Below are positions 13,990-32,000 of a stretch of 32,000 nt of DNA, one piece after another. A program made the translations under genes and the position numbers. The notes beneath the pieces are model-generated. The model was given only the letters and a program-made list of their open reading frames with translations. It did no database searches and was not told the origin of the DNA. The stretch lies in contig NC_003450.3 of the NCBI RefSeq assembly GCF_000011325.1, positions 3,210,001 to 3,242,000 of the forward strand, written 5' to 3'. This DNA comes from Corynebacterium glutamicum ATCC 13032. GTDB taxonomy: Bacteria; Actinomycetota; Actinomycetes; Mycobacteriales; Mycobacteriaceae. How positions within the stretch are numbered: position 1 is the first letter of the stretch; the number at the start of each line of letters is the position of its first letter.

Positions 13990-14715
13990 CTACAGCCAGC
14001 GCGGTGGCTCTGGAACCTCTCCAGTGGAAGAAGTGACTCCATCGGAACCGCGGCCAGCGGCGTAGCGAACAATGCCTGCAAGGCTACCGGACACTACTAC
14101 CTCGTCCTGCCCTGGGGCGGCGGGGTAGCGAGTGCTGGAGGGCTCGTCGAGAAGCACAAGTCCCTCGCCGGCTCCTTGGCTTGTCCACTTTTGTGTGATT
14201 TCTGCAGCTAAGGTGCGCAGGATGACCTCTGGGATGTCGCCAAAGGTTGCCACTGCACCGAGGTCAACTGCGTGGATCCAGACTTCGCGGGAACGCATCC
14301 ACAATGTTTCACTAGCTGGGACAGTGCGTCCCTGAGCTGTCAGAACCTCGTGTGACCAAGCATCTTCAGACGTTTCACGCCAAGCCACGTCCAGGCGTGC
14401 GACGGAGTGTTCATGCAGGTTACGCAACGCATCGGGATTGAGCGTGGAACCGTAGGCAATTTCCTCGTTGCGCGCTTCTGGCGACACGTACATTGGGGTT
14501 TCCTCACCAGTATTTGCCCAGTGCATGAGGTTGCACAGTGCGATGGCGTTGTATGCCACGTGGGCAATGAGGTGGGAACGAGTCCACCCTTCTAGCAGGG
14601 AATGCTCGCCGAACTCAGCGTTGTCCACGAGGGAGAGCTGACGGGAGTAGTGGGATGTGCCCAACCTGGCCAGTGTCAGCCGCTCCTCCAGCGGAAGATC
14701 GTGGAAAGTTGTCAT
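13990..14715 (-). CDS. nagL: Mycothiol-dependent maleylpyruvate isomerase
   Basis: 241 aa. It has the DinB/MDMPI N-terminal domain (SHLIAHVAYNAIALCNLMHWA) and is the last gene of the gentisate operon. Its ATG directly abuts the nagK stop (TAAATG). Also called genM. Confidence 0.9.
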   Translation of the reverse strand: MTTFHDLPLEERLTLARLGTSHYSRQLSLVDNAEFGEHSLLEGWTRSHLIAHVAYNAIALCNLMHWANTGEETPMYVSPEARNEEIAYGSTLNPDALRNLHEHSVARLDVAWRETSEDAWSHEVLTAQGRTVPASETLWMRSREVWIHAVDLGAVATFGDIPEVILRTLAAEITQKWTSQGAGEGLVLLDEPSSTRYPAAPGQDEVVVSGSLAGIVRYAAGRGSDGVTSSTGEVPEPPRWL

Positions 14716-16688
<1,973 letters not shown>

Positions 16689-16836
16689 TGTTGGAGTCCT
16701 CCTTTACGGATGTTGTAGATGCGTATGAAGGGTGTGATTGCCCTTGAGATAAGCAATCCCCAACACCTGCATACGTCTAGCCCTTGAAGTGTTTGTGACT
16801 TCGAACATATTGGGCTTTGAAAGGTGACTCAAGATA

Positions 16837-16874
16837 ATTCCGCTATGTGGAATCTAAGTATTCCCCTCAGGAAA
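16837..16874. promoter_or_regulatory. Two GenR-type operator palindromes in the nagI promoter region
   Basis: ATTCC-gctatgt-GGAAT (16837-16853) and ATTCC-cctca-GGAAa (16860-16874). They fit the ATTCC-N7(5)-GGAAT GenR consensus that I recall from the literature. Confidence 0.5.
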
Positions 16875-16907
16875 CGGGGGTGTGACAGCTCTGAAAATTC
16901 CCCCCAT

Positions 16908-17690
16908 TCACCCTTTTTCGGGCACTCGGTAATCAGCTAAAGCCTTGTTCAGATCCCGCATATGTCGTTCCAAAACCTGCACCGCCTTCGGATAGACCTC
17001 CCGGAACCGATTCGACGGCACAGCCACTGTAATTGCACCTAAAACATCACCCACATCGTTGAGTAAAGGCTCCGCAACTGCACTAACGTCCTGCTCAAAG
17101 AAGCCAAAGTTTGCGCCATGGCCTCGATCCCGGGTCCTGCGAAGACGCTTTCTTAAATTCTCAAATTCCTCATCGCCCAGGCTGGAATACAGTGCCCGAA
17201 GCTCCCGGGCTGACATCTCTGCAAGCATCACTAATCCACCTGAATTTTGGATGGCGGGCATGACTTGACCTCGGCGATTGCCCACGCGCACCGGCAGGGA
17301 ACCTTCAACACTGTGAATAAAGTGAACGCTATCTCCCTGCAGAATCACCAAGTGGGTTGTTTCGCCAGTTTCCTTGCCGATTGATTCCATGTAGTGGCTG
17401 CATTTTTTCGTCAAGTCAGCGCCAAGGCCTGGCTGCAGCGCGGAGGTCGCCAATGCAGAGCCTGGAAGGTAGGTGCGGGACTCGCTTCTGACTGCAAAAC
17501 CCCGGTAGACCAGCATTGACATGGATCGATGGATCGTAGACGCGCCCACCCCAAGGGTTTCGGCGGCACCGGAAATGGTCAAACTTCCAGAGTCACGGAG
17601 CAGCAAAATGAGCTGCAATGCAATGTCGACAGAGCTTAGAAATTCTTTCGGGGGTAACCCCTGGGTGGGGGCGACGTTATCCATAATCAC
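16908..17690 (-). CDS. genR: IclR-family transcriptional regulator of gentisate/3-hydroxybenzoate genes
   Basis: 260 aa. N-terminal winged HTH (ISGAAETLGVGASTIHRSMSMLV) and a C-terminal IclR effector domain. It lies divergent from genK-genH and upstream of nagIKL. Confidence 0.9.
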   Translation of the reverse strand: MIMDNVAPTQGLPPKEFLSSVDIALQLILLLRDSGSLTISGAAETLGVGASTIHRSMSMLVYRGFAVRSESRTYLPGSALATSALQPGLGADLTKKCSHYMESIGKETGETTHLVILQGDSVHFIHSVEGSLPVRVGNRRGQVMPAIQNSGGLVMLAEMSARELRALYSSLGDEEFENLRKRLRRTRDRGHGANFGFFEQDVSAVAEPLLNDVGDVLGAITVAVPSNRFREVYPKAVQVLERHMRDLNKALADYRVPEKG

Positions 17691-17692
17691 TC

Positions 17693-17709
17693 TTTCCAGA
17701 TAGCGGAAT
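17693..17709. promoter_or_regulatory. Third GenR-type operator in the genR/genK divergent region
   Basis: tTTCC-agatagc-GGAAT lies 3 nt upstream of the genR ATG and faces genK. Confidence 0.45.
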
Positions 17710-17724
17710 CCCTTTGATTGTAAC

Positions 17725-19083
17725 TTGGCTCACCTCGATTATGTGTTTATGACATCACACGCACCAGAATCGGGAGGACTTGTGACAGAGTCAACTCTCG
17801 GAGCATCGAATAGCTCCCAAACAATTGAAAATAAAGGCCTCACCATCTTGGGCATCAGCGGCCGACGCTTGGCTGCGGTGCTCATTGGCTGGTTTTTTGT
17901 CATTTTCGACGGCTACGACCTCATTGTGTACGGCACCGTCCAATCGGCCCTGGCTAAGGAGTGGAACTTAAGCTCTGCAACGCTGGGCACCATCGGCTCC
18001 ACCGCGTTCTTTGGCATGGCGATCGGCGCTGTGTTCATTGGTCGACTGTCAGACCGCGTGGGCCGAAAAGCAGCGGTGATTGGATCCGTGCTGATTCTCT
18101 CTGTCTTCACCATGCTGTGTGCATTTGCTCCAAACCCATGGGTGTTCGGCGCTTTCCGTTTCATCGCAGGCCTTGGTCTGGGCGGCTTGGTGCCTTCAGT
18201 TAATGCGATGACCTCTGATTTGGTTCCACGTAAGACCATGTCAGCGTGGGCAACGGTGATGATGTCGGGCGTTCCCATCGGTGGTTCTATCGCGGCTGTG
18301 CTGGCACTTGTGGTTGTTCCTTCCTCGGAGGAGTGGGGCTGGCGCTTCATGTTCCTCATCGCGTTGATCCCACTGGTTGTCGGCTTGCCGATCGCCATGA
18401 AGGTCATTCCTTCCGATAAGGCCATCAAGGCGGATCACGACATTAGAGAAGGCCACGATGAGCCAGCAGGTTTCAAGGATCTGCTTGTCGATCGCTACCG
18501 CTGGATCTCCATTTGGTTCGCGCTCGCCACATTTGTCACCCTGCTCGCGTGGTACGGACTGGGCACATGGTTGCCTCGCCTCATGGAAACTGCAGGTTAT
18601 GAGTTCGGCCATGCATTGATGTTCACCCTGGCTCTGAACCTCGGTGCAGTGATCGGATCCGTGGTTACTGCGTGGGCCGGCGATCGCTTCGGGCCAATCC
18701 GTTCCGGTGTCATCGCTGCAGGTATCGCCGGTATTGCACTGCTCCTGCTGCTCACTTACCCGCCTGTCACCGCGGTTTATGTCATTCTCATTTTGGCTGG
18801 CGTGGGCACCCACGGCACTCAGATCCTCATCATTGCAGCTGTCGCCAACTTCTACCCAAGCAACCTGCGTGGCACAGCACTGGGCTGGGCGCTAGGTGTA
18901 GGTCGTATTGGTGCTGTTGTGGCCCCGCAGCTCGCTGGCCTGCTGCTGGCATGGAACTTGGGCGTGAACTCCAACTTCATCATGTTCGGCACCGCTGCGC
19001 TGCTCTCTGCGCTGGCTCTCAGCGTGTTGCTGCGCCTGCAGAAAACCTACAGCGTCACCCACAAAGTCGAAATCCAAGGCTAA
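17725..19083 (+). CDS. genK: MFS aromatic-acid:H+ symporter (gentisate transporter)
   Basis: 12-TM MFS with GRLSDRVGRK loop motif. The track start TTG 17725 sits only 15 nt from the operator. Alternative in-frame starts are ATG 17749 and GTG 17782; the latter has a GGGAGGA SD 4 nt upstream and may be the true start. Confidence 0.88.
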   Translation: MAHLDYVFMTSHAPESGGLVTESTLGASNSSQTIENKGLTILGISGRRLAAVLIGWFFVIFDGYDLIVYGTVQSALAKEWNLSSATLGTIGSTAFFGMAIGAVFIGRLSDRVGRKAAVIGSVLILSVFTMLCAFAPNPWVFGAFRFIAGLGLGGLVPSVNAMTSDLVPRKTMSAWATVMMSGVPIGGSIAAVLALVVVPSSEEWGWRFMFLIALIPLVVGLPIAMKVIPSDKAIKADHDIREGHDEPAGFKDLLVDRYRWISIWFALATFVTLLAWYGLGTWLPRLMETAGYEFGHALMFTLALNLGAVIGSVVTAWAGDRFGPIRSGVIAAGIAGIALLLLLTYPPVTAVYVILILAGVGTHGTQILIIAAVANFYPSNLRGTALGWALGVGRIGAVVAPQLAGLLLAWNLGVNSNFIMFGTAALLSALALSVLLRLQKTYSVTHKVEIQG

Positions 19084-19119
19084 CCCCCTTTTTCAACTCA
19101 CAGTTAGGAAACTTCACCC

Positions 19120-20448
19120 ATGTCTCTTCCACATTCTGATGAACTCCGCGGCCAAAAGATCATTATTTCCGGTGGCGGAATTGGTGGCGCAGCAGGTGCA
19201 CTTGCGCTTGCTTTGCGCGGTGCCGATGTCACTTTGTACGAACGCGCAGCTGAGTTCAAGGAGGTCGGCGCTGGCCTCCAGATCGGTCCGCACGGCTGGC
19301 GAATGCTGGAATCCTGGGGTCTGCTCGACCAAATTGTCGTGGCCGGCTACCTCCCAGAAGACATGCAGTTCCGCGACGCTGTCAACCGCGAAACCATCCT
19401 GACCATGCGTTTCGATGAAGAATTCCAGCAGCACTACGGCGGTCGCTACCTGGTGATTCACCGCTCTGACCTGCTCAACATCCTGGTCACCAACGCCGAA
19501 GCAGCGGGCGCGAAGCTCCACAATGGCGTCCTGGTCACCGATTCCCGCACCGTCGACGGCGGTATCGAGGTGGACATCGAATCCTCCATCAACAAGGGCG
19601 AAGATAACAAGACTTTGCTTGTCGACGCCTTCCTCGCCTTCGACGGCATCCACTCGGTCATGCGCAAAAAGCTTGTCGACGACGCCCCCGTCGCCTCCTC
19701 CTACGTCGCCTACCGCGGCACCTCCAAGCTGGCAGAAGACGCCGAAATGAAGGACCTGAAATCCGTCATCGGCTACATCGGACCACACGTGCACTTCATC
19801 CAATACCCACTGCGCGGCGGAGAACTCCTCAATCAGGTCGCCGTCTTTGAATCCCAGCGTTACCTCGATGGACGCACCGCCGGCGACATCCCAGAAGACT
19901 GGGGCAACCCCGAAGAATTAGACCGCGCCTACAACCACTGCGACCCCTTCATCCAGGACCGTCTGGACACCCTGTGGCGCAACAACTGGTGGCAAATGTC
20001 CGACCGCGAGCCTCTAGAGAACTGGCGTATCGGCCGCATGTTGCTGCTTGGCGACGCCGCCCACGCACCCCTCCAGTACCTCGCCTCAGGCGCGGTCATG
20101 GCCATGGAAGACGCCGAGGCTGTCGCCCTCTTCGCTGCCGACGCTGCGCGTGCTGGCAACCTCGATTGGGAAGAGGTACTCGCAGAGGTGGAAGCTGAAC
20201 GCCGACCACGCTGCAGCCGCATCCAAACCGTAGGCCGTTTCTGGGGAGAGCTCTGGCATGTGGAAGGCACCGCACGTCTCATCCGCAACGAAGTTTTCCG
20301 CCAAGCAGACCGCAATGGCTGGTTCATCTATGCAGACTGGCTGTGGGGTTACGATGCATCCAAGCGTGCCCACATCGCCAACCCTGAGCTCGGAGAAATG
20401 CCACAAGCACTGAAGGAATGGCGCTACGCCCTCCTCGAACAGAAATAG
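19120..20448 (+). CDS. genH: 3-hydroxybenzoate 6-hydroxylase (FAD-dependent aromatic monooxygenase)
   Basis: 442 aa. Motifs [24 protein letters not shown] motif FDGIHS, and [24 protein letters not shown]. It follows genK. Confidence 0.9.
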
Positions 20449-20456
20449 CAGCCTCA

Positions 20457-20489
20457 CCTGTTAAGGGAAAATTGTGTGCTTTTCCCAGG
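20457..20489 (+). terminator. Weak hairpin after genH (possible terminator, no U-tail)
   Basis: GGGAAAA (20465-20471) pairs with TTTTCCC (20480-20486), extended by CCT/AGG. No T-run follows. Confidence 0.3.
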
Positions 20490-20501
20490 CAGGCTCTTTA
20501 A

Positions 20502-20639
20502 TGTCGAGTTCTTAAGTTCGATTTCTTAACAGCGATTTCAGTCGGAAAACCGGGGAAAACCGAGCGAAATCGCTGTTGAGAAATTGAGCTTGAGGTATTG
20601 GAACCATGAACTCGACACCGTGAAATCGCAGTTAAGAAA
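20502..20639. repeat. Cluster of short inverted/direct repeats with one left arm and two alternative right arms
   Basis: TTTCTTAACAGCGATTTC (20522-20539) is complementary to GAAATCGCTGTTGAG (20566-20580; 14/15 over the 15-nt overlap) and to GAAATCGCAGTTAAGAAA (20622-20639, 17/18). TGTCGAGTTC (20502-20511) is complementary to GAACTCGACA (20608-20617). The loop carries GGAAAACC twice. Confidence 0.7.
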
Positions 20640-20782
20640 CAACCGCGAAATATGGGCGTTTAAGGCGTCGAGGTTTCCGTATGGGTGTGAGTCTAGGGAG
20701 AGCCAGTTAAGGCCCTTAGAAGCGATTCTGTGAGGTCAAACTTTTAGGGATCTCGGTCGTGAATTCACCCTTTTCGAGGCAG

Positions 20783-20912
20783 ACCAGACAGGCGTGACAA
20801 GATTGGCGAAAAAGCCGAGGTTTTGGCACGTGTGTCCGGTTTCCAATCCCCTAAACCAGACAGACGTGCCAAAACCTGGCGAAAATCCAGATTCTTGTCA
20901 CGCCTGTCTGGT
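20783..20912. repeat. Nested inverted-repeat array: four 20-24-nt modules in alternating orientation
   Basis: Copy 1 ACCAGACAGGCGTGACAAGA (20783-20802) and copy 4 TCTTGTCACGCCTGTCTGGT (20893-20912) are perfect 20-bp reverse complements. Copy 2 GGTTTTGGCACGTGTGTCCGGTTT (20819-20842) and copy 3 AAACCAGACAGACGTGCCAAAACC (20853-20876) are 22/24 complementary. Both forward copies are followed by TGGCGAAAA. Confidence 0.8.
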
Positions 20913-20975
20913 TTCTCCTTTTGAGCGACCCAAACCACGCCCGAACCACCGTTCCACAGCCCCCACGAACCCTCA

Positions 20976-21017
20976 AGACAGAAAAGATCGCACCAGCCGC
21001 ATCGAGCTGGTGCGATC
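20976..21017 (-). terminator. Rho-independent terminator of the symporter gene
   Basis: GATCGCACCAGC (20986-20997) pairs with GCTGGTGCGATC (21006-21017), a perfect 12-bp stem with an 8-nt loop. On the minus strand it is followed by TTTTCTGTCT. Confidence 0.75.
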
Positions 21018-21051
21018 AAACCGCAGTAAAAACTACAGAAAATGCGGGTTT

Positions 21052-22305
21052 CTACTTGTGATGTTCCACATCCGATGGAGTGATGTCGAAGGCAACGCGG
21101 TCGTCTTCTTCGATTTCATCTGGGGAAGTGGTGTGCAGCTGGCCCTTGGCGAATTTGTTCACGATGACTGCGATTGCGCCGTCGCCGGTGACGTTTGCTG
21201 CGGTGCCGAAGGAGTCAATCGCGATGTAAGCGGCGATCATGAGGGCGACTTGTTCGGTGTTGAATCCGAGCATGGAGGCCAGCATGCCGGTTGCTGCCAT
21301 GATGGCTCCGCCGGGAACGCCTGGTGCGGCGATCATGGTGATGCCCAGCATGAGGAGGAATCCGATGGAGAGGCCGACGCCTACTTCCATGTCGTACATG
21401 AAGACAACAGCGAAGGTGAAGAGGCCGATCTTCATCATCGATCCAGCTAGGTGGATGGTGGCGCACAGTGGGACAACAAAGCCTGCGACGTTGACATCAA
21501 CATCGTTTTTCAGGGTCTGCTGGTAGGTCACTGGGATGGTTGCCGCTGAAGAGGAGGTGCCCAGTGCAGTGAAGTATGCAGGGAGCATGTTTTTGAACAG
21601 TTTCCATGGGTTCTTCTTGGATACTGCACCAGCGATAATGAACTGGATGGCTAGGAAGAGCAGGGTTCCCACGACGGCGAGAATCAGTACCTTGCCAAAG
21701 GCGGACATGATCTCCAGGAGGCCACCGTTCATGCCCATGCCGAGGAAGATGCCGAAGATGAAGAGTGGCAGCAGTGGGATGACAAAGGCGGTGATGGTCT
21801 TCATGACTACGCGCTCGAGTTCGCGGGTTACCTTGAACAGGGTGTCTGATTTAATTACAGCCATGCCCAGGCCGAGGCAGAATGCCAGCAGCAGTGCGGT
21901 CATCACTTCAAATGGTGGTGGCATCTCGATGTTGAAGTAGGGCTGGAGGGCACCTGCATCAAGGTCGATTTCGGTGACGCTTTGGTGGTCTTTCAGCAGC
22001 CATGGGTAGAGCGCTTGGGATGCTCCGTAGGCGATCAGACCGGAGAAGACGGTGGACGCGTAGGCGATTGCTGCAACAATGCCGAGCCATTTGCCAGCGC
22101 CTCGGCCGAGCCCTGCAATGGCGGGGGCGATGAGGGAGAAGATCAGCACTGGGATGAAGAAGCCCAGAAAGTTGCTGAATAGGCCGTTGAAGGTGGTGAA
22201 GATCTCAGCGAGCCACACCGGGAAGAAGAGGCTGCAGATGATTCCGAGGATGATGGCAACGATCACTCGGAACAGCAGCGACGAGCTCATGCTCTTTATG
22301 TCCAT
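21052..22305 (-). CDS. Dicarboxylate/amino acid:cation symporter (DAACS) family transporter
   Basis: 417 aa, polytopic. Conserved GTSSSAATIPVT reentrant-loop motif and a C-terminal DSFGTAANVTGDG segment. AAGGAAC SD before ATG 22305. Confidence 0.88.
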   Translation of the reverse strand: MDIKSMSSSLLFRVIVAIILGIICSLFFPVWLAEIFTTFNGLFSNFLGFFIPVLIFSLIAPAIAGLGRGAGKWLGIVAAIAYASTVFSGLIAYGASQALYPWLLKDHQSVTEIDLDAGALQPYFNIEMPPPFEVMTALLLAFCLGLGMAVIKSDTLFKVTRELERVVMKTITAFVIPLLPLFIFGIFLGMGMNGGLLEIMSAFGKVLILAVVGTLLFLAIQFIIAGAVSKKNPWKLFKNMLPAYFTALGTSSSAATIPVTYQQTLKNDVDVNVAGFVVPLCATIHLAGSMMKIGLFTFAVVFMYDMEVGVGLSIGFLLMLGITMIAAPGVPGGAIMAATGMLASMLGFNTEQVALMIAAYIAIDSFGTAANVTGDGAIAVIVNKFAKGQLHTTSPDEIEEDDRVAFDITPSDVEHHK

Positions 22306-22596
22306 GGTTGTTCCTTATTTCTAATCAGGTGCTGTCTGAGCAATGCTCGGCAGCGCGTGATGGAATTTTGTGTGCGGCTTGGAAGTGACGGGTCACAAGG
22401 ACAGCTCGTGTAGACCCTGCCTGGAGCCTTGACAAACTCCACCAAACAACTGCGACGTGTGTCAGATTACTGCAGGCTTGTGGTCAAACCTAGTTCTTTG
22501 GAGGCGGAGCATCATACCTTTTAATGTCAGGATCGTGCAGTGAAGAATTCAGGATGAATTACTCGCTGGAATATTGGTGGGGATAGAGTTGTTGTT

Positions 22597-23109
22597 ATGA
22601 CGGTGATCGGAATTATTCTTGGCAGCCTTTTTGGCGTTCTTGCAGTCCTTCTCATCGTGGTTGGTGCTTTGGGGTGGGCGGCTAAGCTCCCTGGCAACCC
22701 GGTTGTGGGCATTCGTGTCCCTGAGGTGCGTAAATCCCAAGAATTGTGGGATATGGCGCACCGTGTCGCTGGCCCGTTGTGGGTGCTGTCGGGAGTTTCC
22801 TTTGTTATTGCATCGCTAGTTGCGTTTGTTGCTTCTGGTTGGATGTGGCTTGTTGTGGCGTTGGGTGTTGTGGCTGCCATCGTGTTCATTGGTATGGGTG
22901 CGGGTATGGCTGCGCATACTGTTGCGATGGTTGACGCGAAGCGCAGTCGCGAAACCCCGCAGGCGCCTGTTTCCGCTGAAATTGAAGAGGCCGGTGGTGT
23001 GACTATTACCTCGCCGATTATCAACAAGACTCCGCTGAATGCCCCCAAGATTGACTTGGATGCAGTGCGTAGAGCTGCGGAAACTACGCAAGAACCCAAA
23101 AATGATTAA
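22597..23109 (+). CDS. trpP: Small membrane protein upstream of the trp operon (TrpP, 5-methyltryptophan resistance locus); SdpI/YhfL-like
   Basis: 170 aa with about 4 TM segments. LPGNPVVGIRVPEVRKSQELWDMAHRVAG resembles the SdpI-family N..GiR...W..ahr motif. Position and size match what I recall as trpP of C. glutamicum. Confidence 0.7.
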   Translation: MTVIGIILGSLFGVLAVLLIVVGALGWAAKLPGNPVVGIRVPEVRKSQELWDMAHRVAGPLWVLSGVSFVIASLVAFVASGWMWLVVALGVVAAIVFIGMGAGMAAHTVAMVDAKRSRETPQAPVSAEIEEAGGVTITSPIINKTPLNAPKIDLDAVRRAAETTQEPKND

Positions 23110-23112
23110 TAA

Positions 23113-23143
23113 TTGAGACAAGCTTCCCACTATGTGATAAAGT
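23113..23143 (+). promoter_or_regulatory. Candidate trp promoter
   Basis: TTGAGA (23113-23118) is followed 17-19 nt later by GATAAA/TAAAGT (23136-23143). This would put the transcription start within a few nt of the trpL GTG (leaderless or near-leaderless). Confidence 0.35.
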
Positions 23144-23151
23144 CCCATTTT

Positions 23152-23205
23152 GTGAATAACTCTTGTCTCAGTCAAAGCACCCAGTGGTGGTGGCGCGCTA
23201 ACTAA
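23152..23205 (+). CDS. trpL: trp operon leader peptide (3 tandem Trp codons)
   Basis: GTG AAT AAC TCT TGT CTC AGT CAA AGC ACC CAG TGG TGG TGG CGC GCT AAC TAA translates to [17 protein letters not shown]. It is too short for the ORF track and was found by eye. It sits directly upstream of the attenuator hairpins. Confidence 0.85.
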
Positions 23206-23249
23206 GCGAGCCTGACACCTCAAGTTGTTTTCACTTTGATGAATTTTTT

Positions 23250-23296
23250 AAGGCTCGTACTTCGTTCGACGAAGAAGCGGGCCTTTTGTGGTTTTT
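23250..23296 (+). terminator. trp attenuator terminator (3:4 hairpin) with upstream alternative pairings
   Basis: AAGGCTCG (23250-57) pairs with CGGGCCTT (23278-85), and inner CTTCG (23260-64) pairs with CGAAG (23270-74), followed by TTGTGGTTTTT. For the antiterminator, CGAGCCT (23207-13) pairs with AGGCTCG (23251-57). For the 1:2 pairing, GGCGCGCT (23192-99) pairs with AGCGAGCC (23205-12), overlapping the Trp codons and stop. Confidence 0.8.
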
Positions 23297-23352
23297 AGCC
23301 CACAACCGGCAAGCCCTGGATCGAATGAAGCTCGCAGCGAGTAATTATTTGA

Positions 23353-25583
<2,231 letters not shown>

Positions 25584-25602
25584 TAAAAAAAGGATTTGAT
25601 TC

Positions 25603-26649
25603 ATGACTTCTCCAGCAACACTGAAAGTTCTCAACGCCTACTTGGATAACCCCACTCCAACCCTGGAGGAGGCAATTGAGGTGTTCACCCCGCTGACCGT
25701 GGGTGAATACGATGACGTGCACATCGCAGCGCTGCTTGCCACCATCCGTACTCGCGGTGAGCAGTTCGCTGATATTGCCGGCGCTGCCAAGGCGTTCCTC
25801 GCGGCGGCTCGTCCGTTCCCGATTACTGGCGCAGGTTTGCTAGATTCCGCTGGTACTGGTGGCGACGGTGCCAACACCATCAACATCACCACCGGCGCAT
25901 CCCTGATCGCAGCATCCGGTGGAGTGAAGCTGGTTAAGCACGGCAACCGTTCGGTGAGCTCCAAGTCCGGCTCCGCCGATGTGCTGGAAGCGCTGAATAT
26001 TCCTTTGGGCCTTGATGTGGATCGTGCTGTGAAGTGGTTCGAAGCGTCCAACTTCACCTTCCTGTTCGCACCTGCGTACAACCCTGCGATTGCGCATGTG
26101 CAGCCGGTTCGCCAGGCGCTGAAATTCCCCACCATCTTCAACACGCTTGGACCATTGCTGTCCCCGGCGCGCCCGGAGCGTCAGATCATGGGCGTGGCCA
26201 ATGCCAATCATGGACAGCTCATCGCCGAGGTCTTCCGCGAGTTGGGCCGTACACGCGCGCTTGTTGTGCATGGCGCAGGCACCGATGAGATCGCAGTCCA
26301 CGGCACCACCTTGGTGTGGGAGCTTAAAGAAGACGGCACCATCGAGCATTACACCATCGAGCCTGAGGACCTTGGCCTTGGCCGCTACACCCTTGAGGAT
26401 CTCGTAGGTGGCCTCGGCACTGAGAACGCCGAAGCTATGCGCGCTACTTTCGCGGGCACCGGCCCTGATGCACACCGTGATGCGTTGGCTGCGTCCGCAG
26501 GTGCGATGTTCTACCTCAACGGCGATGTCGACTCCTTGAAAGATGGTGCACAAAAGGCGCTTTCCTTGCTTGCCGACGGCACCACCCAGGCATGGTTGGC
26601 CAAGCACGAAGAGATCGATTACTCAGAAAAGGAGTCTTCCAATGACTAG
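25603..26649 (+). CDS. trpD: Anthranilate phosphoribosyltransferase
   Basis: 348 aa. Motifs DSAGTGGDGANTINITT and KHGNRSVSSKSGSADVLEALN. Confidence 0.97.
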   Translation: MTSPATLKVLNAYLDNPTPTLEEAIEVFTPLTVGEYDDVHIAALLATIRTRGEQFADIAGAAKAFLAAARPFPITGAGLLDSAGTGGDGANTINITTGASLIAASGGVKLVKHGNRSVSSKSGSADVLEALNIPLGLDVDRAVKWFEASNFTFLFAPAYNPAIAHVQPVRQALKFPTIFNTLGPLLSPARPERQIMGVANANHGQLIAEVFRELGRTRALVVHGAGTDEIAVHGTTLVWELKEDGTIEHYTIEPEDLGLGRYTLEDLVGGLGTENAEAMRATFAGTGPDAHRDALAASAGAMFYLNGDVDSLKDGAQKALSLLADGTTQAWLAKHEEIDYSEKESSND

Positions 26650-28066
26650 TAATAATCTGCCCACAGTGTTGGAAAGCATCGTCGAGGGTCGTCGCGGACA
26701 CCTGGAGGAAATTCGCGCTCGCATCGCTCACGTGGATGTGGATGCGCTTCCAAAATCCACCCGTTCTCTGTTTGATTCCCTCAACCAGGGTAGGGGAGGG
26801 GCGCGTTTCATCATGGAGTGCAAGTCCGCATCGCCTTCTTTGGGAATGATTCGTGAGCACTACCAGCCGGGTGAAATCGCTCGCGTGTACTCTCGCTACG
26901 CCAGCGGCATTTCCGTGCTGTGCGAGCCGGATCGTTTTGGTGGCGATTACGATCACCTCGCTACCGTTGCCGCTACCTCTCATCTTCCGGTGCTGTGCAA
27001 AGACTTCATCATTGATCCTGTCCAGGTACACGCGGCGCGTTACTTTGGTGCTGATGCCATCCTGCTCATGCTCTCTGTGCTTGATGATGAAGAGTACGCA
27101 GCACTCGCTGCCGAGGCTGCGCGTTTTGATCTGGATATCCTCACCGAGGTTATTGATGAGGAGGAAGTCGCCCGCGCCATCAAGCTGGGTGCGAAGATCT
27201 TTGGCGTCAACCACCGCAACCTGCATGATCTGTCCATTGATTTGGATCGTTCACGTCGCCTGTCCAAGCTCATTCCAGCAGATGCCGTGCTCGTGTCTGA
27301 GTCTGGCGTGCGCGATACCGAAACCGTCCGCCAGCTAGGTGGGCACTCCAATGCATTCCTCGTTGGCTCCCAGCTGACCAGCCAGGAAAACGTCGATCTG
27401 GCAGCCCGCGAATTAGTCTACGGCCCCAACAAAGTCTGCGGACTCACCTCACCAAGTGCAGCACAAACCGCTCGCGCAGCGGGTGCGGTCTACGGCGGGC
27501 TCATCTTCGAAGAGGCATCGCCACGCAATGTTTCACGTGAAACATTGCAAAAAATCATCGCCGCAGAGCCCAACCTGCGCTACGTCGCGGTCAGCCGTCG
27601 CACCTCCGGGTACAAGGATTTGCTTGTCGACGGCATCTTCGCCGTACAAATCCACGCCCCACTGCAGGACAGCGTCGAAGCAGAAAAGGCATTGATCGCC
27701 GCCGTTCGTGAAGAGGTTGGACCGCAGGTCCAGGTCTGGCGCGCGATCTCGATGTCCAGCCCCTTGGGGGCTGAAGTGGCAGCTGCGGTGGAGGGTGACG
27801 TCGATAAGCTAATTCTTGATGCCCATGAAGGTGGCAGCGGGGAAGTATTCGACTGGGCTACGGTGCCGGCCGCTGTGAAGGCAAAGTCTTTGCTCGCGGG
27901 AGGCATCTCTCCGGACAACGCTGCGCAGGCACTCGCTGTGGGCTGCGCAGGTTTGGACATCAACTCTGGCGTGGAATACCCCGCCGGTGCAGGCACGTGG
28001 GCTGGGGCGAAAGACGCCGGCGCGCTGCTGAAAATTTTCGCGACCATCTCCACATTCCATTACTAA
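26642..28066 (+). CDS. trpC: Bifunctional indole-3-glycerol-phosphate synthase / phosphoribosylanthranilate isomerase
   Basis: The track ORF starts at 26543, but the true start is ATG 26642 (AAGGAG SD; [14 protein letters not shown]...), overlapping the trpD stop by 8 nt. IGPS half ([16 protein letters not shown]) followed by PRAI half (KVCGLTSP...). 474 aa. Confidence 0.95.
27529..27544. other. parS: parS (ParB-binding centromere-like site), perfect palindromic consensus, inside trpC(F)
   Basis: TGTTTCACGTGAAACA is embedded in the 24-bp perfect palindrome GCAATGTTTCACGTGAAACATTGC (27525-27548). An identical 24-mer recurs at 30189-30212. Confidence 0.8.
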
Positions 28067-28082
28067 AGGTTTAAATAGGATC

Positions 28083-29336
28083 ATGACTGAAAAAGAAAAC
28101 TTGGGCGGCTCCACGCTGCTGCCTGCATACTTCGGTGAATTCGGCGGCCAGTTCGTCGCGGAATCCCTCCTGCCTGCTCTCGACCAGCTGGAGAAGGCCT
28201 TCGTTGACGCGACCAACAGCCCAGAGTTCCGCGAAGAACTCGGCGGCTACCTCCGCGATTACCTCGGCCGCCCAACCCCGCTGACCGAATGCTCCAACCT
28301 GCCACTCGCAGGCGAAGGCAAAGGCTTTGCGCGGATCTTCCTCAAGCGCGAAGACCTCGTCCACGGCGGTGCACACAAAACTAACCAGGTGATCGGCCAG
28401 GTGCTGCTTGCCAAGCGCATGGGCAAAACCCGCATCATCGCAGAGACCGGCGCAGGCCAGCACGGCACCGCCACCGCTCTCGCATGTGCGCTCATGGGCC
28501 TCGAGTGCGTTGTCTACATGGGCGCCAAGGACGTTGCCCGCCAGCAGCCCAACGTCTACCGCATGCAGCTGCACGGCGCGAAGGTCATCCCCGTGGAATC
28601 TGGTTCCGGCACCCTGAAGGACGCCGTGAATGAAGCGCTGCGCGATTGGACCGCAACCTTCCACGAGTCCCACTACCTTCTCGGCACCGCCGCCGGCCCG
28701 CACCCATTCCCAACCATCGTGCGTGAATTCCACAAGGTGATCTCTGAGGAAGCCAAGGCACAGATGCTAGAGCGCACCGGCAAGCTTCCCGACGTTGTGG
28801 TCGCCTGTGTCGGTGGTGGCTCCAACGCCATCGGCATGTTCGCAGACTTCATTGACGATGAAGGTGTAGAGCTCGTCGGCGCTGAGCCAGCCGGTGAAGG
28901 CCTCGACTCCGGCAAGCACGGCGCAACCATCACCAACGGTCAGATCGGCATCCTGCACGGCACCCGTTCCTACCTGATGCGCAACTCCGACGGCCAAGTG
29001 GAAGAGTCCTACTCCATCTCCGCCGGACTTGATTACCCAGGCGTCGGCCCACAGCACGCACACCTGCACGCCACCGGCCGCGCCACCTACGTTGGTATCA
29101 CCGACGCCGAAGCCCTCCAAGCATTCCAGTACCTCGCCCGCTACGAAGGCATCATCCCCGCACTGGAATCCTCACACGCGTTCGCCTACGCACTCAAGCG
29201 CGCCAAGACCGCCGAAGAGGAAGGCCAGAACTTAACCATCCTCGTCTCCCTATCCGGCCGTGGCGACAAGGACGTTGACCACGTGCGCCGCACCCTCGAA
29301 GAAAATCCAGAACTGATCCTGAAGGACAACCGATGA
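28083..29336 (+). CDS. trpB: Tryptophan synthase beta chain
   Basis: 417 aa. PLP-lysine motif HGGAHKTN; GGGSNAIG. Confidence 0.97.
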
Positions 29337-30175
29337 GCCGTTACGACGATCTTTTTGCACGCCTCGACACGGCAGGGGAGGGCGCCTTTGTTCCCTTCAT
29401 CATGCTGAGCGACCCTTCACCAGAGGAGGCTTTCCAGATCATCTCCACAGCAATCGAAGCTGGCGCAGATGCACTGGAACTTGGCGTACCTTTCTCCGAC
29501 CCAGTTGCCGATGGCCCCACCGTCGCGGAATCCCACCTCCGCGCACTCGACGGCGGCGCCACCGTAGACAGCGCACTCGAGCAGATCAAGCGCGTGCGCG
29601 CAGCCTACCCAGAGGTTCCCATCGGAATGCTCATCTACGGCAACGTTCCTTTCACCCGTGGCTTGGATCGCTTCTACCAAGAGTTCGCTGAAGCTGGCGC
29701 AGACTCCATCCTCCTGCCAGACGTCCCAGTCCGCGAAGGCGCACCGTTTTCTGCAGCAGCTGCAGCAGCCGGAATTGATCCCATTTACATCGCTCCGGCC
29801 AACGCCAGCGAGAAAACCCTCGAGGGTGTCTCCGCCGCATCAAAGGGCTACATCTACGCCATCTCCCGCGACGGCGTCACCGGCACCGAACGTGAATCAT
29901 CCACCGACGGCCTGTCCGCAGTGGTGGACAACATCAAGAAATTTGATGGCGCACCCATCCTCTTGGGCTTCGGCATCTCATCCCCTCAGCACGTGGCAGA
30001 CGCGATTGCAGCGGGTGCTTCCGGTGCGATCACGGGTTCCGCGATCACCAAGATCATTGCTTCCCACTGCGAAGGTGAGCACCCGAACCCGTCCACCATT
30101 CGAGATATGGACGGTTTGAAGAAGGATCTCACTGAGTTCATCTCTGCGATGAAGGCAGCGACCAAGAAGGTTTAG
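29333..30175 (+). CDS. trpA: Tryptophan synthase alpha chain
   Basis: 280 aa. Its start overlaps the trpB stop (ATGA). Motifs [14 protein letters not shown] and GFGIS. Confidence 0.97.
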
Positions 30176-30192
30176 GCCTTTAAATGTGGCAA

Positions 30193-30208
30193 TGTTTCAC
30201 GTGAAACA
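30193..30208. other. parS: parS (ParB-binding site), perfect consensus, 13 nt downstream of trpA
   Basis: TGTTTCACGTGAAACA at the centre of the 26-bp perfect palindrome GGCAATGTTTCACGTGAAACATTGCC (30188-30213). Confidence 0.8.
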
Positions 30209-30230
30209 TTGCCCTAAAGTACAGATGTAC

Positions 30231-30279
30231 AAAGAAGCCGCCTCCTAGCTCTCGGGCTGGGAGGCGGCTTCTTTGTTTG
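30231..30279. terminator. Bidirectional terminator between trpA and the convergent PTS EIIC gene
   Basis: AAAGAAGCCGCCTCC (30231-30245) pairs with GGAGGCGGCTTCTTT (30260-30274), a 15-bp stem. TTTGTTTG follows on the plus strand; the tail on the minus strand is weaker (CTTTGT). Confidence 0.75.
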
Positions 30280-30310
30280 CGGTTTAGGAAATCTCAGGGT
30301 TTTGGAGATC

Positions 30311-31852
30311 TTAGCTTCGAGCCGGTGGGGTAGGAGCGCCCGCCGGAGGAGCAATCTTAGGGTAGGTCCGAGCCCCAGCCGTTGGAGTGGCATCAGCTTC
30401 CGCCTTCTCCACGCGCTCACGGTTGGGAGCTGGATCCCAGTGCCCATTCACGACGCGCTTCTGGAAGACCATCGCGCCACCCAGAAGAACCGCTGCGATG
30501 ATGAGCAACAAGATGAGCCCGCCAGCACCTTCCACCTTGGCTGCAGAACCAACAACGATTCCGAACCAACCAAAGTCCGCATCACCGAAAGTGGTGTTCT
30601 CTGACCCGAAGGAACCAAGCACACCAAGCAGGAAAGCAGGGAGGAAGGTAATCAGAAGACCGTTGGCAAAGGCGCCAAATACTGCTCCTCGACGACCACC
30701 CGTGGCATTACCGTAAACGCCCGCCGCGCCACCAGTGAAGAAGTGGGGGACCAAACCAGGCAGAATCAACGCGACACCAAAAGCTGGGTTCAGCCACGAT
30801 GCAAGAACAGTCAGGCCAACCAAGCCACCGACGAAGGAAGACAAGAAACCAATGAGAACGGCGTTCTGCGCGTAGGGGAACACGATCGGTGCATCCAATG
30901 CGGGGATAGCTCCGGGAACAACCTTCGCAGCAATACCTTGGAATGCGGGGACCAGTTCACCAAGAATGGTGCGGACACCAAAGAGAATCACGGCAACTGC
31001 AACGCCGAACTGCAGACCTTGAGTGAAGGACTGCATGATGTAGTTGCCTACGTTGGTGGCGCCATTGGGGAATGCAGTGAAGGCTTCTTCTTCTCCTGCG
31101 CGCACCAGGAACAAAATAGCCAAAATGATGTACATGATCGCCATGGACAGAGCTGTAGAAACCATGGAGTCGCGGAGGAAGCGCAAGCCTTCCGGAACCT
31201 TCATATCCTCAGTGGAAGGGCTGGCCTTCTTGCCCTTGCCACCGACCAGTCGGCCGACTGCACCGGCAGCTACATAACCTGCGGTGCCGAAGTGTCCAAT
31301 GGCAATGGAATCATCGCCAGTGATTCGGCGAGTCCACGGATGCGCGAACGCAGGCAACGACACCATGAGAATACCGAGCAAGAGAGCACCCACACCCACC
31401 ACAATCCACGCATCAAATCCGGCGGTGGCCAAGATGATGGTGAGCATGGTGGACATGAACAGCACGTGGTGTCCGGTGAGGAAGACATAACGCAGGTTGG
31501 TGAAACGAGCCAACACCAAAGAGATGGCGAAGCCCAGAATCATCAGCCACGCCACCTGCGCGCCGTATTCAGCCTGTGCGATTCCGGCGATGGCTTCATT
31601 CGTTGGGACAACACCACGCATGCCTGTGGCACCCATGATCATCGCACCCAGTGGCTCCAGGGAGGCAGTGACCAACGTGGCACCCGCACCAATGAGCAAA
31701 AAGCCCAACGTTGCTTTGATTGCTCCACCGATAACCTGACCGACGGAACGCCCCATGGCACCCAATCCCACGGCGGTGATGATACCGATGAGGAAAGCCG
31801 GAACCGCAAGGATTTCATTAACGAGGAAAAGAGGAATGGTTAACCAGTCCAT
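30311..31852 (-). CDS. PTS EIIC component, ascorbate (UlaA/SgaT) family
   Basis: 513 aa, polytopic. The N-terminus MDWLTIPLFLVNEILAVPAFLIGIITAVGL is typical of UlaA/SgaT. It has a roughly 45-aa Pro/Ala-rich cytoplasmic tail. I recall the C. glutamicum homologue being annotated as a ribitol-type PTS permease but cannot verify that. Confidence 0.88.
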   Translation of the reverse strand: MDWLTIPLFLVNEILAVPAFLIGIITAVGLGAMGRSVGQVIGGAIKATLGFLLIGAGATLVTASLEPLGAMIMGATGMRGVVPTNEAIAGIAQAEYGAQVAWLMILGFAISLVLARFTNLRYVFLTGHHVLFMSTMLTIILATAGFDAWIVVGVGALLLGILMVSLPAFAHPWTRRITGDDSIAIGHFGTAGYVAAGAVGRLVGGKGKKASPSTEDMKVPEGLRFLRDSMVSTALSMAIMYIILAILFLVRAGEEEAFTAFPNGATNVGNYIMQSFTQGLQFGVAVAVILFGVRTILGELVPAFQGIAAKVVPGAIPALDAPIVFPYAQNAVLIGFLSSFVGGLVGLTVLASWLNPAFGVALILPGLVPHFFTGGAAGVYGNATGGRRGAVFGAFANGLLITFLPAFLLGVLGSFGSENTTFGDADFGWFGIVVGSAAKVEGAGGLILLLIIAAVLLGGAMVFQKRVVNGHWDPAPNRERVEKAEADATPTAGARTYPKIAPPAGAPTPPARS

Positions 31853-31876
31853 AATATTTTCGTCCTTTTAAAGTAG

Positions 31877-32000
31877 TTAGATGTCGTAGCGTTCACGAAG
31901 CGCAGCATCGATTTCATCGGTGCTCGTGAAGTCATTGATCACGTGAACCGGGATTCCAACATCACCCAACGTGCGGGCGATTTCACCAGAGGTCATGATG
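31877..32000 (-). CDS. PTS EIIB-like protein, C-terminal 40 codons only (5' part outside window)
   Basis: My translation is ...IMTSGEIARTLGDVGIPVHVINDFTSTDEIDAALRERYDI-stop (TAA 31879-31877). It lies immediately upstream of the EIIC gene in the same orientation. The assignment rests mostly on context. Confidence 0.5.
   Translation of the reverse strand, partial: IMTSGEIARTLGDVGIPVHVINDFTSTDEIDAALRERYDI

Follow-up and report, generated by a model that had tools for sequence, protein, structure and literature searches.

The trpC(F) gene of Corynebacterium glutamicum contains within its reading frame a perfect palindrome of 24 bp, and it may be asked why a sequence of such symmetry should be kept inside the gene of a biosynthetic enzyme. 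It could serve as a binding site on the DNA, it could follow from the needs of the protein, or it could act as a structure in the mRNA. The palindrome was noticed in a stretch of 32,000 nucleotides of the chromosome, referred to here as the window, with positions counted from its first nucleotide. It is almost certainly parS1 of C. glutamicum, a chromosomal centromere-like site, so that a real centromere proved recognisable from sequence alone. The site itself is already known, having been published, verified by ChIP and dissected genetically. Its conservation throughout Corynebacterium, which extends to the synonymous positions of codons, is a new, small addition to that knowledge.

A parS site within trpCF

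The palindrome (GCAATGTTTCACGTGAAACATTGC, that is gcaatgtttcacgtgaaacattgc) is perfect over its 24 bp, as the initial annotation had described it, and a scan of the window confirmed that its 16-bp core is an exact match to the symmetric parS consensus. This consensus, tGTTNCACGTGAAACa, is the general one of chromosomal parS sites, and Böhm et al. 2020 call it 'B. subtilis-like 16 bp consensus'. The features of the host gene are as follows.

27529 to 27544, no strand assigned: parS1, the 16-bp ParB nucleation site TGTTTCACGTGAAACA in trpCF (exact match; Böhm et al. 2020, PMC7083940; conservation in the genus)
27525 to 27548, no strand assigned: 24-bp perfect palindrome, a lineage-specific extension of parS1 through the change of TCG (Ser302) to TTG (Leu302) (comparison of strains and species)
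26642 to 28066, forward strand: trpC(F), bifunctional IGP synthase / PRA isomerase of 474 aa, host of parS1 (Pfam IGPS and PRAI; gene calls of six strains)

Inverted repeats matching the consensus exactly lie at 27529-27544 and at 30193-30208, and these two are the only matches to the 16-mer in the 32-kb window when up to three mismatches are allowed, compared with a mean of 0.17 in dinucleotide-shuffled sequence. The initial annotation listed a single site and overlooked the second exact copy, parS2. A chance origin of the 16-mer was rejected, two copies being observed against 4.6e-6 expected in 32 kb from base composition; the corresponding expectation for the 24-mer is 6.8e-11.

The trpCF open reading frame extends over 26543..28066 on the forward strand, with its real start at 26642, and the resulting call of 474 aa is common to six strains. 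The TrpCF sequence of the window is identical to PDB 7ETX, 'Tryptophan biosynthesis protein TrpCF'. Across the palindrome the codons are CGC AAT GTT TCA CGT GAA ACA TTG CAA, encoding R295-Q303 in the PRAI part of the enzyme, and the 16-mer runs from the final base of codon N296 to codon T301. Pfam domains and codons thus agree with the initial annotation, which had placed the site in the PRAI half of the gene and read it as R-N-V-S-R-E-T-L-Q.

Relationship to the published parS cluster

Ten identical B. subtilis-like parS sites of 16 bp have been described in C. glutamicum, in a cluster of 35 kb at 73 kb from oriC (Böhm et al. 2020, Nat Commun 11:1485, PMC7083940). Of these, parS1 is the most oriC-distal and the sole one in a coding sequence, that of trpCF, parS2-10 being intergenic. 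The initial annotation had considered that the palindrome might be one of about ten ori-proximal sites, and it is the published parS1. The enrichment of ParB at this locus, which had been put forward as a check, is present in the published ChIP-seq: ParB-mCherry gave reproducible peaks at 10/10 parS, strongest over parS1-4. In a mutant of parS2-10 the ParB ChIP-qPCR signal at parS1 was unchanged, and a strain with parS1 only showed wild-type-like growth, division and segregation, retained its ParB foci and its secondary diagonal in Hi-C, and folded its chromosome like the wild type. When all ten parS were mutated, 29% of cells were anucleate and ParB foci were lost. Spreading of ParB from parS1 was at its maximum within ~2 kb and reached up to ~16 kb on each side, and the enrichment of SMC at the parS cluster depended on both ParB and parS. 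The native parB of C. glutamicum was used in that work and, according to the main text, mutation of parS1 introduced an XmaI site. ParB binding at parS1 has its support in this one paper (PMC7083940).

The same authors found that the SMC ChIP signal gathers over a stretch of 13 kb upstream of parS1, and ascribed it to roadblocks that trap SMC and not to a specific binding site (PMC7083940). This region would equal about 14500-27500 of the window.

The chromosomal position was compared among complete genomes. The TrpCF protein of the window is an exact match to proteins named as C. glutamicum MB001 and ATCC 13032, and its TrpA is encoded on many complete chromosomes of ~3.3 Mb. Positions 19333-32000 of the window are 100% identical to CP115148.1 (3,282,349 bp) and 98-99% identical to five other C. 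glutamicum strains. In CP115148.1 parS1 lies at ~3,210,477, 71.9 kb before the record end, and further exact 16-mers follow toward the record end at +2.66, +5.27 and +8.26 kb from it, all of them intergenic. There are therefore four exact copies within 8.3 kb, and with the published ten-site cluster of 35 kb this answers the question of whether the 16-mer is scattered or clustered in favour of clustering. The distance from the locus to the record end is 62-72 kb in 5/6 complete C. glutamicum chromosomes and 534 kb in the sixth, the outlier probably reflecting a different start point of that record. The initial annotation assigned the window to the ori-proximal partition zone, and this holds: 72 kb to the record end is in agreement with the published 73 kb from oriC, presupposing that the record starts at dnaA. 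No cognate parA or parB was found inside the 32-kb window.

Conservation of the site across Corynebacterium

For 80 further species of Corynebacterium, trpCF was fetched together with 10 kb on either side and compared in a codon alignment, the sample covering a TrpCF identity of 62-89% and a locus G+C of 51-71%. The best match from another species was C. callunae, at 89%. At the homologous position 73/80 other species have the site with at most one mismatch. Counted over 81 genomes including the window, the 16-mer at the trpCF position has no mismatch in 38, one in 35 and two in 2, and 6 have no site. The single mismatch in these 35 genomes always falls on position 16, where the Thr codon has its third base.

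The codons used within the site are almost fixed among genomes with the majority residue: TCA in 75/75, CGT in 75/75, GAA in 74/75, GTT in 76/79 and AAT in 69/70, although relatedness among the species keeps these counts from being independent. Outside the site the same trpCF genes give these codons a smaller share of their own amino acid, 7% for TCA, 15% for CGT, 28% for GAA, 12% for GTT and 28% for AAT. As controls, the neighbouring S293, likewise conserved, is encoded by any of the six Ser codons, the commonest at 25%, and over 209 conserved columns the commonest codon has a mean share of 0.64. An alignment of corynebacterial trpC(F) had been proposed to see whether the palindrome is preserved at synonymous positions, and the site is indeed kept down to these positions.

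The six genomes with no site (L053, L054, L058, L064, L080 and L069) form one clade, which includes C. pygosceleis, C. meridianum, C. antarcticum and C. marambiense. In the TrpCF tree this clade is nested among lineages that bear the site, and because of this its lack of the trpCF parS points to a loss. Its peptide reads SPR-A-V/L-D-A/I-x-T, and the homologous position in E. coli TrpCF reads SPRCVNVEQ. Other parS sites, no more than 10 kb away from the trp operon, have been kept in this clade.

Retention of the site, fixation of rare codons and divergence of the peptide where the site is lost all go beyond what coding alone would need. The pattern shows purifying selection at the DNA level on the trpCF parS across the genus. 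Such selection fixes the otherwise rare codons AAT GTT TCA CGT GAA and dictates S-R-E-T in the enzyme. Because the site-less clade and E. coli carry other residues, the motif of the enzyme itself is SPRxV only, and S-R-E-T is no requirement of the enzyme. The site-less clade has a different peptide, and therefore the constraint runs from the DNA to the protein. The comparative result is a clean natural example of a DNA-binding site that overrides codon preference and dictates a segment of an enzyme genus-wide.

When the searchable literature was examined for an earlier report that the trpCF parS is conserved genus-wide, only Böhm et al. 2020 came up, and this is a weak negative, subscription journals being mostly outside that literature. 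In the main text of Böhm et al. 2020 we found no mention of cross-species conservation, of a synonymous-codon constraint or of a strain-specific 24-bp extension.

Two metagenome-assembled genomes in the sample, L036 and L063, are titled 'uncultured Campylobacter sp.'. Both have a trpCF of Corynebacterium type (65-71% identity) that includes the parS site, their G+C is 64%, and they are probably mislabelled bins.

The 24-bp extension

At 27546 in the window, codon 302 is TTG (Leu), whereas most species and five other C. glutamicum strains have TCG (Ser). Through this nonsynonymous C-to-T change the palindrome of parS1 has grown from 18 bp to 24 bp, and its 24-mer has become identical to that of parS2. 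The five other strains read ...ACATCGC at the site, and ...ACATCG is the reading in C. callunae as in most Corynebacterium species. Because of the latter, the C-to-T change is derived, and the 24-bp palindrome is lineage-specific. It could have arisen by chance, by gene conversion from parS2 or by quasi-palindrome template switching, between which a single transition cannot discriminate. A palindrome of at least 24 bp at the trpCF site occurs in 1/73 other species. The 24-bp palindrome as a functional unit was rejected, being absent in the five other C. glutamicum strains and in 72/73 other species.

parS2 and the trp operon

The second site lies behind the last gene of the operon to which trpCF belongs, and the features concerned are these.

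23404 to 30175, forward strand: trpE-trpG-trpD-trpC(F)-trpB-trpA operon, transcribed through parS1 to parS2 (Pfam, ORF layout, called genes)
30193 to 30208, no strand assigned: parS2, second exact 16-mer, intergenic, 2664 bp downstream of parS1 (exact match; kept in 6/6 C. glutamicum strains)
30190 to 30215, no strand assigned: 26-bp perfect palindrome GGCAATGTTTCACGTGAAACATTGCC around parS2, in the 3' UTR of the trp operon (hairpin of -16.0 kcal/mol)
30226 to 30279, no strand assigned: strong terminator hairpin with T-tract between the convergent trpA and PTS EIIC genes, 3' of parS2 (fold energy -42.9 kcal/mol, z = -7.9)

The palindrome around parS2 starts 15 nt past the trpA stop codon (30173-30175) and contains the same 24-mer as parS1. 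The PTS EIIC gene follows trpA in convergent orientation, and a terminator-like match at 30254-30270 falls within the hairpin region at 30226-30279. RNA polymerase on the trp operon must cross parS1 and arrive at parS2 before it meets this terminator.

Two further observations were made along the operon. Upstream of trpE, at 23152-23205 on the forward strand, there is an open reading frame for a trp leader peptide of 17 aa with three successive Trp codons; it is a classical attenuation leader, and is called as a 17-aa gene in strain genomes. To the right of parS2, ~20 nt are substituted by unrelated sequence in the five other C. glutamicum strains, and C. callunae is like the window in this flank (TTGCC).

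Alternative explanations for the palindrome

It might be argued that the palindrome is a by-product of protein conservation, the enzyme needing N-V-S-R-E-T and the symmetry being incidental. R-N-V-S-R-E-T is unchanged or almost unchanged throughout 28 TrpCF homologues (70-89% identity), with variable sequence on both flanks, and the SPRxV motif is common to E. coli PRAI. However, this does not account for the synonymous positions, which are frozen on rare codons (for TCA 6.7% would be expected, for CGT 15%) when the neighbouring S293 makes use of six. Other residues are tolerated as well, with A-V-D-A-G/A-T in site-less species and C-V-N-V-E-Q in E. coli, and the same 16-mer is also found in nearby intergenic DNA. 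An origin in protein constraint is hardly credible on this evidence. An operator for another palindrome-binding transcription factor, acting on trp or its neighbours, has just as little to recommend it. Perfect palindromes are typical of operators and one copy is near the end of the operon, but the sequence is the exact ParB consensus, copies occur at unrelated gene junctions in the 35-kb ori-proximal cluster, and 880 nt inside a gene would be an odd position for an operator. Moreover, ParB ChIP signal and foci depend on the sites (Böhm et al. 2020, PMC7083940).

A third possibility is a function at the RNA level, the element forming a hairpin in the trp transcript with a role, for instance, in stability, processing or translational pausing between IGPS and PRAI. 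Both parS1 and parS2 are transcribed with the trp operon, and the 24-mer has a predicted fold of -13.4 kcal/mol (z = -3.4), that of the parS2 palindrome being -16.0 kcal/mol. What is kept across the genus, however, is the sequence and not the pairing, and the invariant part is confined to the core that ParB recognises. Position 16 is A, C, G or T in 40, 21, 17 and 3 genomes respectively, although its partner, position 1, is T in 74/81; the 1/16 pair is broken without compensation in many species, and covariation is absent. Other C. glutamicum strains lack the outer stem, and their fold is -9.2 kcal/mol; no match to an Rfam family was found anywhere in the window. An RNA hairpin is therefore very improbable as the reason for the palindrome. 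The initial annotation had proposed that codon, ParB-binding and mRNA-hairpin constraints must be satisfied by the same nucleotides; the joint constraint of DNA site and codons stands, and the hairpin has to be dropped from it. The reading of the palindrome as the parS1 site is the one we retain.

parS sites elsewhere in the genus

Outside trpCF, 250 parS-like sites were collected from the sampled loci (L007-L086). Their single mismatches are nearly all at positions 1 (48) and 16 (54), and therefore the effective parS core in the genus is the 14-mer GTTTCACGTGAAAC. In these 250 sites the 16-mer is flanked symmetrically, with C-G/A-A favoured to its left and T-C/T-G to its right, a pattern suggestive of weak contacts outside the 16-mer.

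The surroundings of these sites were also of interest. Palindromes of at least 24 bp, and up to 50 bp, contain 39/262 of the parS (15%), compared with 1.5% in a flank-shuffled control. Many intergenic Corynebacterium parS are the tip of long perfect palindromes (for example L007 13603, L008 16702 and L009 17265), and this is also the position of C. glutamicum parS4 (L002 16449-16488), ~7.8 kb beyond the window end. In about one third of the parS palindromes of at least 22 bp an A-run or T-run adjoins, in the manner of intrinsic terminators that act in both directions; AAAAAATGGCGATGTTTCACGTGAAACATCGCCATTTTTT, which lies between convergent genes, and the C. callunae parS2 right after trpA are cases in point. 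To our knowledge there is no report of a parS that doubles as a terminator hairpin.

Function of parS1 and comparison with known systems

Binding of ParB, sufficiency of parS1 and recruitment of SMC were shown by Böhm et al. 2020 (PMC7083940). ParB dimers bind the inverted repeat of 14-16 bp at parS1, load there and spread onto the flanking DNA. The complex formed on parS1 together with parS2-10 is moved by ParA and recruits SMC/ScpAB, which zips the chromosome arms. From general knowledge of ParB, loading at parS1 would include a CTP-dependent sliding-clamp step.

It is tempting to go further and to propose that the trpCF parS is an ancestral, positionally fixed anchor of the genus, and that transcription under trp starvation modulates ParB/SMC loading via parS1 and parS2, two ParB loading sites inside the attenuation-controlled trp unit that RNA polymerase would then traverse. 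Taken as a whole this proposal is very unlikely to be correct. The part that concerns an ancestral, positionally fixed anchor centromere of Corynebacterium appears to be largely established by the comparison of genomes, whereas the coupling of trp transcription to ParB/SMC loading is pure speculation. If it were true, amino-acid status would be coupled to chromosome organisation. With the comparative result, parS1 lends itself as a model in which to study dual-coding constraints and the coexistence of transcription and ParB loading on one piece of DNA.

A parS site in a reading frame has a counterpart in Bacillus subtilis, for which Lin and Grossman reportedly described, in 1998, a parS within the coding sequence of spo0J (parB). 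The B. subtilis spo0J parS is TGTTCCACGTGAAACA, one base short of perfect symmetry. Like parS1 it belongs to the same consensus family and is part of an open reading frame, being both transcribed and translated. The two differ in their host gene, which is parB in B. subtilis and a biosynthetic gene in C. glutamicum. In Pseudomonas aeruginosa there are several ori-proximal sites, parS1-4, and one of them alone is both needed and enough for proper segregation (PMC4368675); the redundancy is as in C. glutamicum, although the phylum is different. The C. glutamicum parS1 of Böhm et al. 2020 (PMC7083940) has the same organism, the same trpCF host, the same 16-mer and the same oriC-distal place as the palindrome studied here, with no difference between the sites.
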